DNA of 64,000 nucleotides from Parcubacteria group bacterium Gr01-1014_8 (lineage in GTDB: Bacteria > Patescibacteriota > Minisyncoccia > Phycocordibacterales > UBA2100): positions 1-64,000 of the forward strand of contig VMGC01000003.1 in the NCBI GenBank assembly GCA_007376385.1. Reading direction: 5' to 3'. Numbering within the stretch: the first letter of the stretch is position 1; each line of letters begins with the position of its first letter. This document shows positions 60,428 to 64,000 of this stretch, in pieces. The notes below the pieces were generated by a model. That model searched no databases and was not told where the DNA came from. It saw only the letters and a program-made list of their open reading frames with translations. Both the position numbers and the translations under genes were made by a program.

Positions 60428-61072
60428 ATGATGCGTTTTTTTCGAGCCATATTTGATGCGATTCTCCCGCAAAAAGCACGGGTCGCACGAACACAGACCT
60501 ACACATTGAAAGATTTGGAGCTTTCGCCTACGACTCACGAAGCATACGGAGTACAGATAACAACGCTGATGTCATATCGAACGAAAGCAGTTGAAGATCT
60601 CATCCGCGCTTTGAAATATGACGGGGCAAAACACGCATCACATGCCCTCGCAGAAGCACTTGGAGAATATCTGCAAGAAGAGATCGCCCACATCAAGCTG
60701 TTTTCCTCAAAATCAGTGCTTCTCGTTCCTATATCCCTTCACAGTGAACGTCTTCGAGAACGCGGATTTAATCAGATAGAAGTTGTGCTCAATGCATTGC
60801 CAGAAGAATTCAAGAACGGGAAGCTCACAACTCTCTCGCCTCGTACGCTCACGCGCATTCGCAACACCCCACAACAAACAAGGCTTTCAAGAAATGAACG
60901 TCTGAAGAACGTAGAAGGTGCGTTCGCCGTTTCGGACGAAAAGACGCTTCAAGATACGCATGTCATTCTCATTGATGATGTAACAACTACCGGAGCAACG
61001 CTTTCGAGTGCGGCACAAACACTCAAGAAAACAGGAGTATCATTTTCAATGATTGCTCTCGCACGAGCATAA
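60428..61072 (+). CDS. comFC: ComF family phosphoribosyltransferase-domain protein
   Basis: C-terminal PRTase motif VILIDDVTTTGATL. Confidence 0.75.
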   Translation: MMRFFRAIFDAILPQKARVARTQTYTLKDLELSPTTHEAYGVQITTLMSYRTKAVEDLIRALKYDGAKHASHALAEALGEYLQEEIAHIKLFSSKSVLLVPISLHSERLRERGFNQIEVVLNALPEEFKNGKLTTLSPRTLTRIRNTPQQTRLSRNERLKNVEGAFAVSDEKTLQDTHVILIDDVTTTGATLSSAAQTLKKTGVSFSMIALARA

Positions 61073-61183
61073 ACTGCGGGCTTGGCGGGATTCAGACTTT
61101 GTAAGCGAGGCATCACAAGGGTATCTTAGCGAGTTTCTTGAGAGGTTATTGAGGTGTCTGGATCGCCCCAACTGTACGGCGTG

Positions 61184-61774
61184 TTATTCGAGTGACACAC
61201 CTATATCGCCATCAAACTGGCCCTGCTTTACGTTGATACTGTTTGCCTTGATGAAATTTCTGTAGACAAGTTTGCCAGCAATATCTAACTTATGGAATAT
61301 CTCCATATAATTCCAGAATATGCCTTTGCTATATTTCGAATACTGTTTTTGATGAAGAGTCTCATTTGCTGCTTTATCTTTTTTAATGTCGCCCCATAAA
61401 GTCGTAATCGCATTTTGAACATCGCTTGCAAAAGATGGCACGTAGATAAGAAGTCCCTGATTAAAGAAACCTAAATGTTCGCTCTGTGCAGACGGGTCCG
61501 CAGTAGGAACAACTGCGCCCTTTGCGACATAGCTATGCGATACTCCGTTTCGAAACAACTCATAAATCAATTCTGCAATTGGATGATATTGAGGCGGCAT
61601 GTACACACTCTTGCAAAAGGCAACAAAGTTATTCTTGGTAGTACCGGGCCCGGTTTTTCCTGTTATGAAACTCCCACACATTTCCATGGCGGTAAATACC
61701 GCACTTGCCCACAGGAGGGTGCCTTTTTCATTTGGGCCGATAGAGTTTACTAAGTCCTCGAAAAAGATTGCCAT
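61184..61774 (-). CDS. hypothetical protein with an RNxxxH motif (possible HEPN-like)
   Basis: 196 aa with ELFRNGVSHSY (Rx4H), no other recognisable domain. Lies between comFC and tRNA-Ser. Confidence 0.4.
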   Translation of the reverse strand: MAIFFEDLVNSIGPNEKGTLLWASAVFTAMEMCGSFITGKTGPGTTKNNFVAFCKSVYMPPQYHPIAELIYELFRNGVSHSYVAKGAVVPTADPSAQSEHLGFFNQGLLIYVPSFASDVQNAITTLWGDIKKDKAANETLHQKQYSKYSKGIFWNYMEIFHKLDIAGKLVYRNFIKANSINVKQGQFDGDIGVSLE

Positions 61775-61992
61775 ATTGAAAATTGTAGCTCCGACTGTGC
61801 TCTTCGGGTACTCGGGTCAGTCCGATAAAAAAGTCTTCGGGCGGTGAGATATTAGTCTTTGCTCGAACCCACTTCGCACGCGCGGAGCGCGTGGTGGCTT
61901 GAAACTGAAGCGTACGCCCCGATTCCGCTGACTCTCGCCTCTGCCGCGCCGCTTTGCGGCGCGGCTCTGTCCGAACTCGAAGTTTCTATCTG

Positions 61993-62081
61993 CGGAGAGG
62001 GAGGGATTCGAACCCTCGAGACAGTTTTACCCGCCTAACACGTTAGCACCGTGCCGCCTTCGACCACTCGGCCACCTCTCC
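61993..62081 (-). tRNA. tRNA-Ser(GCU)
   Basis: Acceptor GGAGAGG/CCTCTCC, 3 bp D-stem, anticodon loop GTGCTAA, long variable arm, T-arm GAGGG-TTCGAAT-CCCTC. Confidence 0.85.
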
Positions 62082-62270
62082 CTCGATTCGCTTACGCGAA
62101 TCATATCGGAAGGAGGCCTCGCCCTTCGGGCTCCCTAAAGCCTGCTCGGCACTTGCCTCGCATTGGCTTTTTCCGCATTCGCGGAATCGGATGAAATAGA
62201 CGCCAGGTCATATTTCATGGCCACCTCTCCAACCGCACTACCCTATCATAGAACAATAGGGTTTTCTAAA

Positions 62271-62624
62271 TCACAAAACTTTGTGTATCAACCAAGAGAG
62301 AAGCGACAGAACGATGGCACCCAATACCGCACTCCAGAAACCTGCGATAGAAAATCCTGGCACTATCCACGTCATTGCATAAAAAAGAAATGCGTTCAAA
62401 ACAAAAGCAAACAGTCCGAATGTGATGAGAGTGATCGGGAATGTAAGGATCTGCAGAACGGGACGAATAACGGTTACAATGACTGACCATACGAGTGCGA
62501 CTAAAAGAACTGTCGTCCATCCGCCTGCAATTGTTATGCCTGGGACAATGTTGACGGTTAATAGCACCGCCGCGACGTTCCCTGCATATTTCAAGAGAAA
62601 GTGCATGCGTTCATGATACGACAT
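62271..62624 (-). CDS. YvlD/phage-holin-family-4-like four-helix membrane protein
   Basis: 117 aa with 4 TM helices, pattern similar to the Phage_holin_4_2/DUF360 family. Confidence 0.55.
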   Translation of the reverse strand: MSYHERMHFLLKYAGNVAAVLLTVNIVPGITIAGGWTTVLLVALVWSVIVTVIRPVLQILTFPITLITFGLFAFVLNAFLFYAMTWIVPGFSIAGFWSAVLGAIVLSLLSWLIHKVL

Positions 62625-62985
62625 AAAGCACTCCCAGGCAAAACACCCGCCAGCTTTCGGCTGATGGGTGTCTTTTAGTTCCGAATTTCAGCGCTACTCC
62701 TGTTCTTCCTCTGCCATGCCTTCCAACAGGTCTTCATCCAGCTCTTCACTTTCCTCGGCTGGTTCATTCCCCTCATCATCGTTAGACATCATCATAGATA
62801 TGCAACGCTATCCTGATAACGAGCATTCGCTCGATATCGTGTCTTCGCGGGGATGACAATGAAAGCAAGCTTTCGCTTCGCATCCTCGCTAGCCACGATA
62901 ACACCGCTATCGTACCGATACCTACCCCGCGTGCAAGCGATAGGGGTGTGAATAACTTTTGGGGAGCATATAATTCCTCTACCTC

Positions 62986-64000
62986 ATGAACGCCTCCGAT
63001 ACCATCACCGCGCATTTTCGCCTCACTAAGCCACAAATTGCGGCTCTCCGACGACTTGGACTAATAACTATTGCTGATATCTTGCGCCATTTTCCTGCAC
63101 GCTATGAGAGAGCCGGCGAATCATCAGACATCTCCCATTTGGTAGCGGGACAAAAAGTAACCCTCTATGGAGAGTTATCGAAACTTGAAGCAAAGCGATT
63201 ATGGAAAAGTCGCCGCACAGCAACAGAAGGTATCTTCGAAGACGCGACCGGAAAAGTGAAAGTGCTCTGGTTCAATCAACCTTACATCGCAAAAATGGCG
63301 CCGCAAATGCAGCTTGTTAAATTAACAGGTTCCGTTGCCGGCAAAAACAAACCATATATCACTAATCCTGAAATTGAGACGTTGCCACCAGGCTTCATAC
63401 CTCCGGTGCAAAGTGAAAAATTGTTCAACGTGGCACGATCTGAACCAACACCAACCTCCATTTTCCCCGTCTATCCGGAAACGCGCGGTATTACGTCTCG
63501 TTGGTTCTTTCACGCCTTGGAACGCATTTTTGGATCGAACACACATATCACGCTCGAAGATCCTCTCCCAAGTAATGTACGAGAAAGATACCACCTACCC
63601 GATCTTTCTACATCGCTTATGTGGGCGCATAAGCCGGAAAAGGAATCGCATGCAGAAGTCGCGCGAAAACGTTTTGCGTTCGAAGAAATTTTTGTGCTCA
63701 ACGTCATGCGTGCGAAAGAACGCGCAGAAAATGACGCACTGCCTTCATTTCAAATAGATAATGCAAAAGAACATGCAGTGCATTTTCTCGAAAGCGTGTC
63801 GTTCAAAGCGACGCGCGCGCAGCATGTAGCGATAGAAGACATCCTCGCTGATCTTAAGAAAAATCACCCGATGGCACGGCTCCTCGAAGGTGATGTTGGA
63901 AGCGGCAAAACCCTTGTCGCCGCAGCGACTGCATATGCGATCGTAAATTCAAGACCTCGAGGACAGACCTTCGGCACGCTCCAGGTCGGTTATATGGCGC
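62986..64000 (+). CDS. recG: ATP-dependent DNA helicase RecG (5' part, continues beyond the window)
   Basis: N-terminal wedge/OB domain then helicase motif I GDVGSGKT. No stop codon before the window end. Confidence 0.8.
   Translation, partial: MNASDTITAHFRLTKPQIAALRRLGLITIADILRHFPARYERAGESSDISHLVAGQKVTLYGELSKLEAKRLWKSRRTATEGIFEDATGKVKVLWFNQPYIAKMAPQMQLVKLTGSVAGKNKPYITNPEIETLPPGFIPPVQSEKLFNVARSEPTPTSIFPVYPETRGITSRWFFHALERIFGSNTHITLEDPLPSNVRERYHLPDLSTSLMWAHKPEKESHAEVARKRFAFEEIFVLNVMRAKERAENDALPSFQIDNAKEHAVHFLESVSFKATRAQHVAIEDILADLKKNHPMARLLEGDVGSGKTLVAAATAYAIVNSRPRGQTFGTLQVGYMA

Follow-up and report, generated by a model that had tools for sequence, protein, structure and literature searches.

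A serine tRNA gene in an uncultured member of the Parcubacteria as the probable junction of conserved core genes with an insertion hot spot

In an uncultured Parcubacteria bacterium, is the short gene cluster next to a serine tRNA gene a genomic island in miniature, or a piece of conserved chromosome that happens to look like one? We analysed a window (the whole stretch of DNA considered here) of 64,000 nt and, within it, the segment at approximately 61184–62797, which the initial annotation had read as one tRNA-associated island of phage-derived or defence/toxin-type genes. Every feature listed in that annotation was recovered at its position (Table 1); the segment as a whole is probably not a single island, and represents instead a junction of conserved core genes with an insertion hot spot.

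Table 1. Features at and around tRNA-Ser(GCU), numbered along the window
Feature	Position	Strand	Evidence or remark
ComF-like phosphoribosyltransferase gene	60428..61072	+	Pfam Pribosyltran, E = 1.8e-7
Orphan 196-aa gene, HEPN-like family	61184..61774	-	Contains ELFRNGVSHSY; R75-N-G-V-S-H80-S-Y82
Perfect 10-bp G+C hairpin GCCGCGCCGC AAA GCGGCGCGGC, no T tract, downstream of tRNA	61943..61965	-	Inverted repeat
Conserved tRNA-Ser trailer, GATAGAAACTTCGAGTTCGGACAG on minus strand	61960..61991	-	Aligns with L037 and L126
tRNA-Ser(GCU)	61992..62081	-	ARAGORN; Rfam 54.7 bits
Structured leader/insert of ~149 nt, directly 5′ of tRNA	62082..62230	-	MFE -80.2 kcal/mol, z = -5.05
Promoter-like -10 box TATGATAGGGT	62240..62250	-	9 nt upstream of the 12-nt tRNA copy
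YvlD/PF04020 four-helix membrane protein, 117 aa	62271..62624	-	Pfam PF04020 Phage_holin_4_2, E = 9.4e-28
Hairpin followed by TTTT, between acidic ORF and YvlD gene	62643..62671	-	-16.9 kcal/mol
33-aa acidic ORF, MMMSNDDEGNEPAEESEELDEDLLEGMAEEEQE, 48% D+E	62694..62795	-	Head-to-head with recG
recG, 5′ part only, runs off the window	62986..64000	+	Pfam RecG_wedge, E = 1.8e-14

Relatives were compared as metagenomic contigs (L-numbered loci), many of them short. A metagenome scan returned 23 contigs with a YvlD orthologue at 62–73% identity. In all 17 of these that also carry recG (RecG identity 59–72%), recG and the YvlD gene are divergently oriented, and none of the 17 contains the 196-aa gene. 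A search begun from the acidic peptide recovered the identical gene order in further contigs, bringing the related Parcubacteria contigs in which the acidic micro-ORF and the YvlD gene stand head-to-head with recG to more than 20. A two-component pair has been inserted in L115 and L116, yet the peptide gene still adjoins recG, the anchor of the conserved block (complete gene present in L002). The comF gene belongs to the core and delimits the variable slot at its other end: it lies 1.2 kb from the YvlD gene in the window against 2.7–3.3 kb in L039 and L047, and in L015 it is directly followed by tRNA-Ser(GCU). These comparisons show the core arrangement of this Parcubacteria (Paceibacteria-type) clade, in which recG is divergent from the gene for a small polyanionic protein and the latter is followed by the YvlD/PF04020 gene, with tRNA-Ser(GCU) close by. 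Insertions accumulate on both sides of this tRNA gene, and its 3′ side in the present genome accommodates a single low-G+C orphan gene.

The membrane protein described as Phage_holin_4_2/YvlD-like is indeed a member of PF04020, matching the profile with a high score and from end to end (positions 1–105 of 105). The Pfam name of this family ('mycobacterial 4 TMS phage holin') is one of the points that speak for reading the whole 1.6-kb stretch as one island, the others being the presence of a HEPN-like gene, the use of tRNA-Ser(GCU) for integration in relatives and the existence of a copy of a tRNA end. The genomic setting argues against it. The neighbours of the YvlD gene in more than 20 loci are recG, tRNA-Ser, DUF5652, aminotransferases and secE-nusG, with no lysis cassette or prophage genes found around it in any of them; the YvlD gene and the acidic ORF both have ordinary G+C, and the only PHROG match was weak and partial (E = 3e-4). 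The supposed phage origin found no link, either in PHROGs or in a fold comparison with viral structures. Unlike a phage holin in the functional sense, the YvlD gene is chromosomal, conserved, adjoins recG and lies outside any lysis or prophage context; because this context is chromosomal and non-phage, the holin name is a family label rather than a demonstrated function, and the gene is, judging by synteny, part of the clade core and not island cargo. Neither an integrase nor an att-type 3′ repeat delimits the segment in the window, and the 12-nt tRNA copy (see below), which comes from the 5′ end of the tRNA, marks the border of an RNA insert of 137 nt rather than of a gene cluster. Variable content combined with atypical composition, as expected of an island, was found for 61184–61774 only, which is absent from the syntenic relatives, the other half of the region (62271–62795, with the YvlD gene and the acidic ORF) being conserved. 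The single-island interpretation is therefore largely refuted by synteny and we regard it as very improbable; what survives of it is the HEPN-like 196-aa gene next to a tRNA-Ser that is used for integration in relatives.

The minus-strand acidic ORF is present as described and is conserved at the amino-acid level across related loci. Positional homologues on the same strand occur in 19 of these, and a profile search of 5.8 billion sequences retrieved 28 proteins, all of 44–61 aa (E-values down to 1e-9). The family combines a D+E content of 36–58% with a short amphipathic patch and an aromatic residue that is conserved close to the C-terminus; its motifs are M-x-[FY] at the N-terminus, DDAL-x-EVLD-EDEDE in the centre and EE-x-[WY]-E at the C-terminus. 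Alternatively, the ORF might be untranslated, its GA-rich stretch serving the YvlD gene or recG as a 5′ UTR or a regulatory element, as would fit the lack of a normally spaced Shine-Dalgarno sequence, the overlap of a promoter-like hexamer with the start codons and the short window copy devoid of the conserved aromatics. Against this, the frame is open in at least 19 loci with the start and the C-terminal [WY]-E-stop conserved, the profile retrieves only full-length proteins, and strong purifying selection is evident, with pS greater than pN in every one of 136 pairs (dN/dS ~0.1; pN 0.07–0.3, synonymous sites saturated), making an untranslated element extremely unlikely. We conclude from these codon-level patterns that the product is very probably a real, translated protein, predicted to be a disordered polyanion, and from its position that its gene belongs to the core of the conserved recG block and is not island cargo. 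A TAnnnT-like box located 6–8 nt before the ATG in many loci suggests a leaderless mRNA. The copy in the window, which is divergent as well as short (33 aa) and lacks both aromatic residues conserved in relatives, may be decaying. The family is clade-restricted, as no such ORF precedes recG in 26 more distant loci, whose RecG identity is ≤58%. The hairpin and T tract reported after the ORF were also found, with an outer stem at 62643–62671 and an inner stem at 62650–62664; a hairpin right after the stop codon recurs in L035, L044, L047, L050, L051, L115 and L117, and that of the window is a probable, possibly partial, terminator.

Small polyanions or tails that mimic nucleic acid or dock partners include the SSB C-terminal tail, the C-terminal domain of the RNA polymerase delta subunit, DNA-mimic proteins and Pup. 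The acidic family resembles these, by analogy, in its very high D+E content, amphipathic patch and C-terminal aromatic residue. It differs from SSB (IPF) and Pup (GGQ/E) in ending with [WY]-E, and from Pup in having no ligase or proteasome genes near it, and searches detected no sequence relation between the family and known small polyanionic proteins. Our best guess, held with low confidence, is that the acidic protein acts as a nucleic-acid-mimicking or partner-docking regulator tied to recG or YvlD.

Within the segment, only the 196-aa gene, foreign-looking in both composition and distribution, is clearly accessory. Its G+C is the lowest among the 53 long ORFs in the window (z = -3.05), no syntenic relative carries it, and only three close homologues were found among 5.8 billion proteins, in three unrelated gene contexts, one of them 34 nt 3′ of a tRNA-Ser(CGA). 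A mobile unit with conserved flanks was considered and rejected, DNA homology among the four homologues being confined to the ORF plus ~14 nt upstream. An exhaustive search of 1.84 billion representatives extended the family to 47 clusters, whose distant members directly adjoin DUF5677 genes and a gene for an AriA/PtuA-like ATPase, have restriction-modification and Fic genes in their vicinity, and form operons with AriA/PtuA-type ATPases and DUF5677 proteins (e.g. ATPase, HEPN-like protein and DUF5677 in L118 and L122). No antitoxin, sensor or partner gene was found in the window or beside the three close homologues; as for an MNT antitoxin, no ORF separates the 196-aa gene from comF on one side or from the tRNA on the other, and the neighbours of the homologues are unrelated. 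Since no integrase or att repeat was found flanking the gene in the window, its being the remnant of an element is unsupported. In one homologous contig a tRNA-Ser gene had been annotated as coding sequence, giving a protein a false N-terminal extension.

The initial annotation had recognized no domain in this protein beyond ELFRNGVSHSY, and this holds true: neither it nor 45 family members gave a match in Pfam, NCBIfam, PADLOC, PHROGs or PDB sequences, HEPN families included. An AlphaFold model made from only 4 sequences had a pLDDT of 35.6; a later structure model reached a pLDDT of 88.7 and a pTM of 0.85, and Foldseek searches with the 196-aa model against PDB and BFVD gave nothing significant. 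R75 is invariant across 45 family sequences, at least 90% of which share G34, F53, Y63, G77, H80 and D118. In the model, R75 stands at the C-terminal end of helix 61–78, with H80 in the following loop; the residue after R75 is N, C, H, D or S in the family. Helix 19–38 contains E31, a position taken by E or D in most members, outside any Ex3[KR] context. HEPN domains have been described by an Rx4-6H motif with a polar residue after the R and by a second acidic residue in helix 2, often within Ex3[KR] (PMC3710099). The 196-aa protein fits this description in the position of the motif, the polar residue and an insert between helices 2 and 3, and may fit it in the helix-2 acidic residue.

The modelled four-helix up-down bundle with its helix 2–3 insert likewise resembles those of HEPN RNases (HepT, PDB 7ae2 and 5yep; AbiV, ApeA and Abi2), the Rx4HxY spacing of the window protein also occurs in the HepT toxins of HEPN-MNT modules, and the neighbours of distant family members are those of defence islands. 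On the other hand, there is no detectable sequence similarity to HEPN families and no MNT antitoxin or partner at the window locus, the protein adds a beta-hairpin (87–111) and a long fifth helix (152–177) to the HEPN layout, and its family has a conserved C-terminal G-D-I-x-[VI]-S motif. It could be a helical protein with some function other than that of a nuclease, in which the R...H motif and the HEPN-like bundle are convergent and the position at tRNA-Ser is due to chance; we consider this unlikely. We infer that the protein represents a HEPN-fold family not described before. Given the Rx4H motif at the end of helix 3, it would most likely be a metal-independent RNase, probably a dimer like other HEPN enzymes, with a role as toxin or as effector in defence. 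AMPylation is unlikely to regulate it because the Tyr after the His varies across the family. The earlier view of this Rx4H protein as an accessory gene of toxin or defence type at tRNA-Ser is supported.

What, then, makes the tRNA gene a site for such acquisitions? tRNA-Ser(GCU) is itself a core gene, and in relatives it is an integration target. Large serine-recombinase elements occupy its 3′ end in relatives, the recombinase ORFs of L034 and L113 terminating within the 3′ part of the orthologous gene, and in L037 and L126 an insert of 177 nt, flanked by a tRNA 3′-end repeat, separates the tRNA 3′ end from the trailer. L126 and L034 have identical leaders, yet the serine-recombinase element of L034 is missing from L126. 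In the window, lineage-specific sequence starts past the conserved trailer, and the G+C hairpin at its edge recurs in the fold of 61775–61991 (z = -2.5). Like these tRNA-targeted integrative elements, the window has a tRNA duplication (nucleotides 1–12) that leaves the gene intact; unlike them, it has no recombinase or 3′ repeat around the 196-aa gene, and its duplication is of the 5′ end and encloses only ~137 nt of structured non-coding sequence. The L034 and L113 recombinases had no match in the window beyond the tRNA overlap. Three candidate traces were discarded: the best local match to the tRNA downstream of it, a candidate att repeat, was equalled in score by 67% of shuffles; a stretch at 61075–61098, which by eye resembles the tRNA 3′ end at 17/24 positions, was not significant; and no remnant of the DUF5652 gene that lies beside the tRNA in relatives was found in the YvlD–tRNA spacer of the window.

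The 5′ side of the tRNA holds the structured leader, whose predicted fold has a closing stem (P1) around four hairpins and a further hairpin after it. The leader opens with 12 nt (GGCCACCTCTCC, 62219–62230) that exactly copy tRNA nucleotides 1–12 (62070–62081). The partial tRNA-Ser duplicate of the initial annotation is therefore confirmed as a sequence; rather than a cluster border, it marks the start of a conserved, structured insert of ~150 nt. Taken alone the 12-nt repeat is marginal, being matched as well by 2.4% of shuffles of the 189-nt spacer; it is not a chance match, because it is kept at the same position in other genomes. The leader is 85–89% identical over 150–170 nt in L034 and L037, where proteins are ~70% identical, and in both a similar -10-like box precedes the tRNA copy. 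A comparable box (TGTGGTAnnnT or TATGATAAGGT) lies ~12 nt before the true tRNA 5′ end in insert-free relatives, consistent with the box at 62240–62250 being a promoter -10 element; a sigma-70 scan made no call there. The layout shows a structured insert of ~137 nt following tRNA nucleotide 12 and bounded by the duplication of nucleotides 1–12, which keeps the tRNA gene intact; the insert would be transcribed within the tRNA precursor and then freed by RNase P. Searches of Rfam at a permissive threshold returned only the tRNA itself and sub-threshold matches overlapping it, and no family for the leader; covariance-model matches to the leader were exclusively beside tRNA-Ser.

The element may be a recently spread, non-autonomous mobile insert or an integration scar at the tRNA 5′ end, as its patchy distribution among relatives, the target-like duplication that bounds it (nucleotides 1–12; 18 nt in L009), the promoter box kept ahead of the upstream copy and the further insertions at the same tRNA-Ser(GCU) would suggest. 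Its DNA identity exceeds that of neighbouring genes, which could reflect recent spread rather than function, and the tRNA folds without need of it: a switch, in which a complement within the element would block tRNA folding unless sequestered by the upstream copy, was discarded since the minimum-energy fold is the cloverleaf whether the copy is present or not. We give considerable weight to such an insert without function while leaning somewhat against it, for it lacks terminal inverted repeats, neither the window nor the other loci searched with the model contained a second copy, its fold is very stable (z = -5.05), and both compensatory changes keep helices, one of them in the stem made by the tRNA copy. 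The full element is represented by three distinct sequences, whose consensus fold of 50 pairs includes 2 compensatory ones, a value reached by 66 of 500 shuffles. The element holds the complement of its own tRNA copy; the copy follows lineage-specific tRNA substitutions (C or U at Ser nucleotide 12 and at Ile nucleotide 6), the complement co-varies with the copy in the Ser element, and an analogous copy-plus-complement arrangement, forming a hairpin, is found in the orthologous tRNA-Ile(UAU) leaders of two genomes, which likewise speaks against an insert without function. A bolder proposal is that the insert represents a new kind of tRNA-linked RNA (a functional leader RNA, or a small element that recognizes its target tRNA by base-pairing with the 5′ end); the tRNA-Ile(UAU) hairpin would then be of the same kind as the Ser element. 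Independently of this, the recG-linked microprotein could be a clade-specific regulator of DNA repair. All of this we hold to be a long shot.

Reading the locus as a probable junction of core genes and hot spot exposes an annotation trap in CPR genomes, where a 'phage holin' label and an unannotated acidic micro-ORF, both belonging to the clade core, mimic island cargo. Three uncharacterized families are defined here, namely a HEPN-like family of ~50 clusters, a recG-tied polyanionic protein and a structured tRNA-Ser leader insert. To our knowledge, CPR bacteria have few known defence systems, and the distant HEPN-like members encoded with AriA/PtuA-type ATPases and DUF5677 proteins represent a candidate new defence module. 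Finally, tRNA-Ser(GCU) is a recombination hot spot at both of its ends in these reduced genomes, which bears on how CPR bacteria acquire accessory genes.

The features reported by the initial annotation are all present in the sequence, but its reading of them as a miniature tRNA-associated island of phage-derived or defence-type genes holds only in part. The 196-aa gene, an orphan with an R75-N-x3-H80 motif, is foreign and lies at an insertion-prone tRNA, whereas the YvlD gene and the acidic ORF form a conserved recG-linked block: synteny is kept for the order recG-peptide-YvlD but not for the 196-aa gene, which is missing from every syntenic relative. The segment combines the recG-linked conserved block with a tRNA whose 5' side carries an unusual structured insert and with one horizontally acquired orphan gene.

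Coordinates of the features in the window and in relatives or homologues (L-numbers denote their loci; L002 is the window's own genome, past the window end)
Feature	Location	Strand
ComF-like PRTase	window 60428-61072	+
196-aa ORF	window 61184-61774	-
CTACAATTT(T)CAA ahead of 196-aa gene start	window 61775-61790	-
tRNA-Ser(GCU)	window 61992-62081	-
12-nt copy of tRNA 5' end	window 62219-62230	
PF04020/YvlD-type 117-aa ORF	window 62271-62624	-
Hairpin + TTTT	window 62643-62671	-
33-aa acidic ORF	window 62694-62795	-
recG	window from 62986	+
tRNA-Ser(CGA)	L001:9995-10083	
P0003 as annotated	L001:10001-10705	
CTACAATTT(T)CAA ahead of P0003	L001:10101-10116	
P0003 true start (GTG)	L001:10117	
Palindromic inserts between acidic ORF and YvlD gene	L036:3808-3930; L037:3756-3880; L039:3864-4000; L041:3852-3990; L040:373-500; L049:3829-3920; L113:5148-5270	
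Region compared with the recombinase loci, lacking the element	L126:4543-4900	
Serine-recombinase gene overlapping tRNA-Ser(GCU)	L034:1928-3694	-
Serine-recombinase gene overlapping tRNA-Ser(GCU)	L113:7306-8859	-
177-nt insert 3' of tRNA-Ser	L037:5063-5240	-
177-nt insert 3' of tRNA-Ser	L126:4633-4810	+
HicA-like and RHH/HicB-like genes	L017:4130-4701	-
DUF5652 gene	L033:1593-1856; L113:6845-7138; L115:7494-7769; L117:6879-7145; L126:4079-4327	
tRNA-Ser(GCU) and second predicted tRNA-Ser	L011:4522-4755	
tRNA-Ile(UAU) leaders with 5'-end copy	L002:4425-4518; L117:20-113	
Distant family member and DUF5677 gene	L118:2205-5483; L122:4001-5423; L123:19-1441	

Metagenomes scanned with the YvlD-type protein gave orthologues (62-73% identity) on 23 contigs, 17 of which carry recG (59-72% identical), divergent from the YvlD gene in all 17. 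The same order, recG <- -> peptide -> YvlD, was recovered for all three profile-retrieved peptides looked up independently on long contigs, and also in L126-L128. In L115 and L116 the peptide gene still adjoins recG but is separated from YvlD by an inserted response regulator and histidine kinase. The proposed phage holin was not borne out: 'holin' is here a Pfam family name only, no lysis or prophage context surrounds the gene in any locus examined, and it is an ordinary family member. In seven loci, G+C-rich palindromic inserts of ~100-130 nt, bracketed by CGCTCGC ... CTCGCTAA, separate the acidic ORF from YvlD and resemble insertions of small repeats or MITE-like elements; the insert-free loci L033 and L038 have CGCTCGCTT at this position.

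In 17 loci the spacer between recG and YvlD holds a small, very acidic ORF (43-61 aa, 31-58% D+E) read in the same direction as YvlD, and two more loci have a variant ending in EEEE. The consensus reads M-x-[FY]-[HR]-D-D-E-E ... S-D-D-A-L-x-E-V-L-D-E-D-E-D-E ... E-E-K-x-W-E. A profile search of 5.8 billion proteins retrieved 28 sequences (all 44-61 aa, E down to 1e-9), every one unnamed or 'hypothetical' and none with a Pfam domain; the microprotein family is new. The ORF proved conserved at the amino-acid level, with pS exceeding pN in 136/136 pairs, dN/dS of 0.09 for the L036/L037 pair and, between L051 and L115, 84% protein identity at a pS of 0.95. With a conserved position, saturated synonymous sites and few non-synonymous differences, it is a real protein gene of the clade core; it is absent in lineages with RecG identity <= 58%. 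The window copy is a divergent member, possibly decaying, since it is the shortest (33 aa) and lacks aromatic residues near either end. No Shine-Dalgarno sequence precedes the acidic ORFs; in many of them the ATG lies 6-8 nt past a TAnnnT-like box, a proximity that suggests leaderless mRNAs. A hairpin directly past the stop codon is common.

The 'partial tRNA-Ser duplicate' exists as a 12-nt copy, but it marks the start of a conserved structured leader insert. The 189-nt YvlD-tRNA spacer folds at -80.2 kcal/mol versus -56.4 for shuffles (z = -5.05). About 150 nt of it recur with 85-89% identity immediately 5' of tRNA-Ser(GCU) in L034 and L037, loci whose proteins reach only ~70%. This conserved stretch runs from the first nucleotide of the copy (tRNA nucleotides 1-12) to the tRNA border. 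In the consensus fold, the copy and GGCCUCCUUCC close a stem around four hairpins, with a sixth helix before the tRNA. Compensatory changes affect two pairs, including one of the closing stem, a result that three sequences do not make statistically decisive. Element-free relatives have a promoter-like TGTGGTAnnnT box ~12 nt ahead of the tRNA, and an equivalent box precedes the copy in the window, L034 and L037. In the simplest history, 137 nt would have been inserted behind tRNA nucleotide 12, with duplication of nucleotides 1-12. The element has no Rfam family, and may be a functional leader RNA or a small tRNA-targeting element. A simple folding switch was not supported by folding.

Comparable copies occur elsewhere. 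In L009, from a more distant genome, the element is shorter: an 18-nt copy is joined by a hairpin of 12 bp and a near-perfect complement of 17 nt. Analogous in architecture, the tRNA-Ile(UAU) leaders of L002 and L117 start, ~13 nt past a TATAAT box, with a 9-nt copy of their own tRNA 5' end (CCGCCCGTA in one genome, CCGCCTGTA in the other, each in step with its tRNA) that pairs with a downstream complement. Own 5'-end copies of at least 9 nt lie within 300 nt upstream of 7/64 tRNAs examined (~0.2 expected).

The 3' side of tRNA-Ser(GCU) also receives insertions. Large serine-recombinase ORFs in L034 and L113 terminate inside the orthologous tRNA, its 3' part forming their last 11-18 codons, and CI/Cro-like repressors follow the L113 ORF. 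L126 shares the leader sequence of L034 exactly but not the recombinase element, which suggests an integrative element polymorphic at this tRNA. In L037 and L126, a G+C-rich 177-nt insert, absent from the window, separates the tRNA 3' end from the conserved trailer GATAGAAACTTCG; it contains the T-arm-like GGGGTTCGAAAGC and closes with an imperfect copy of the tRNA's 3' terminus (CCCATCCCCTCCGCA). The HicA-like (82 aa) and RHH/HicB-like (108 aa) genes directly 3' of the tRNA in L017, a more distant relative, are another accessory module at the same slot. A DUF5652 small membrane-protein gene adjoins the tRNA in most relatives; in the window, tblastn found no remnant of it and the structured leader occupies the YvlD-tRNA spacer. 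L011 has another predicted tRNA-Ser 62 nt from tRNA-Ser(GCU), in divergent orientation and bearing the unusual anticodon ACT.

Since nearly every relative has a different set of genes between YvlD, the tRNA and comF, the 196-aa gene occupies a slot where foreign DNA lands, although neither a recombinase nor a 3' repeat of the tRNA is left around it in the window. Its G+C (0.42 against 0.49 +/- 0.023, z = -3.05) is the lowest among the window's 53 long ORFs. The protein is identical to GenBank 'MAG: hypothetical protein G01um10148_660' and has only three close homologues among 5.8 billion proteins (65-74% identity), each in a different context, DNA similarity ending at the ORF borders. Two of the three copies with readable upstream sequence (window, L001, L004) lie directly 3' of a tRNA-Ser gene. 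The L001 homologue (P0003) is annotated 38 residues too long, its false N-terminus (VAEWLKALVSKTSGLERVSGVRISPSPP...) being translated tRNA-Ser(CGA); it truly starts 34 nt past this tRNA, on the same strand. Directly ahead of the start in the window and L001, in otherwise unrelated contexts, CTACAATTT(T)CAA is conserved and resembles a -10 box 7 nt ahead of the ATG/GTG, like the box before the acidic ORFs. The start region hints at a leaderless mRNA.

Searched exhaustively with HMMER, 1.84 billion representatives yielded only 47 family clusters. In a 45-sequence alignment R75 alone is invariant, G34, F53, Y63, G77, H80 and D118 are conserved in at least 90%, and the motif is [FLY]-R-[NCHD]-G-x-x-H-x-[YFW]. 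The list obtained for the 196-aa protein, for which Foldseek gave no significant match, was dominated by HEPN-fold proteins of many families (YutE, the C-terminal domains of kanamycin and streptomycin nucleotidyltransferases, Csm6, SO_3166, 4nqf, TTHA0636, AbiV, AF0298, sacsin HEPN, Csx1, Las1, LsoA and MtlR). In HEPN proteins the R is followed by a polar residue, helix 2 carries a conserved acidic one, and helices 2 and 3 are often separated by inserts (PMC3710099). The model would match each point: helix 19-38 carries E31, a short inserted helix spans 46-54, and R75-N76 end helix 61-78, with H80 in a loop before helix 112-143. The gene belongs to a new, putatively HEPN-like family.

Genes of the window subfamily are solitary, with no antitoxin-like neighbour. 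In Daviesbacteria (L118-L120) a distant family gene directly follows an ATPase matching PARIS AriA and Septu PtuA models and precedes a DUF5677 gene, with a restriction-modification pair and two Fic genes adjoining; in L122 and L123 the family gene is again directly ahead of DUF5677, in a tight pair. A preprint counts DUF5677 among the domains enriched near defence-associated recombinases (PMC12632615). The gene context of the distant members supports a conflict role, and the family gene with DUF5677 (and the AriA/PtuA-like ABC ATPase) is a candidate for an undescribed defence module.
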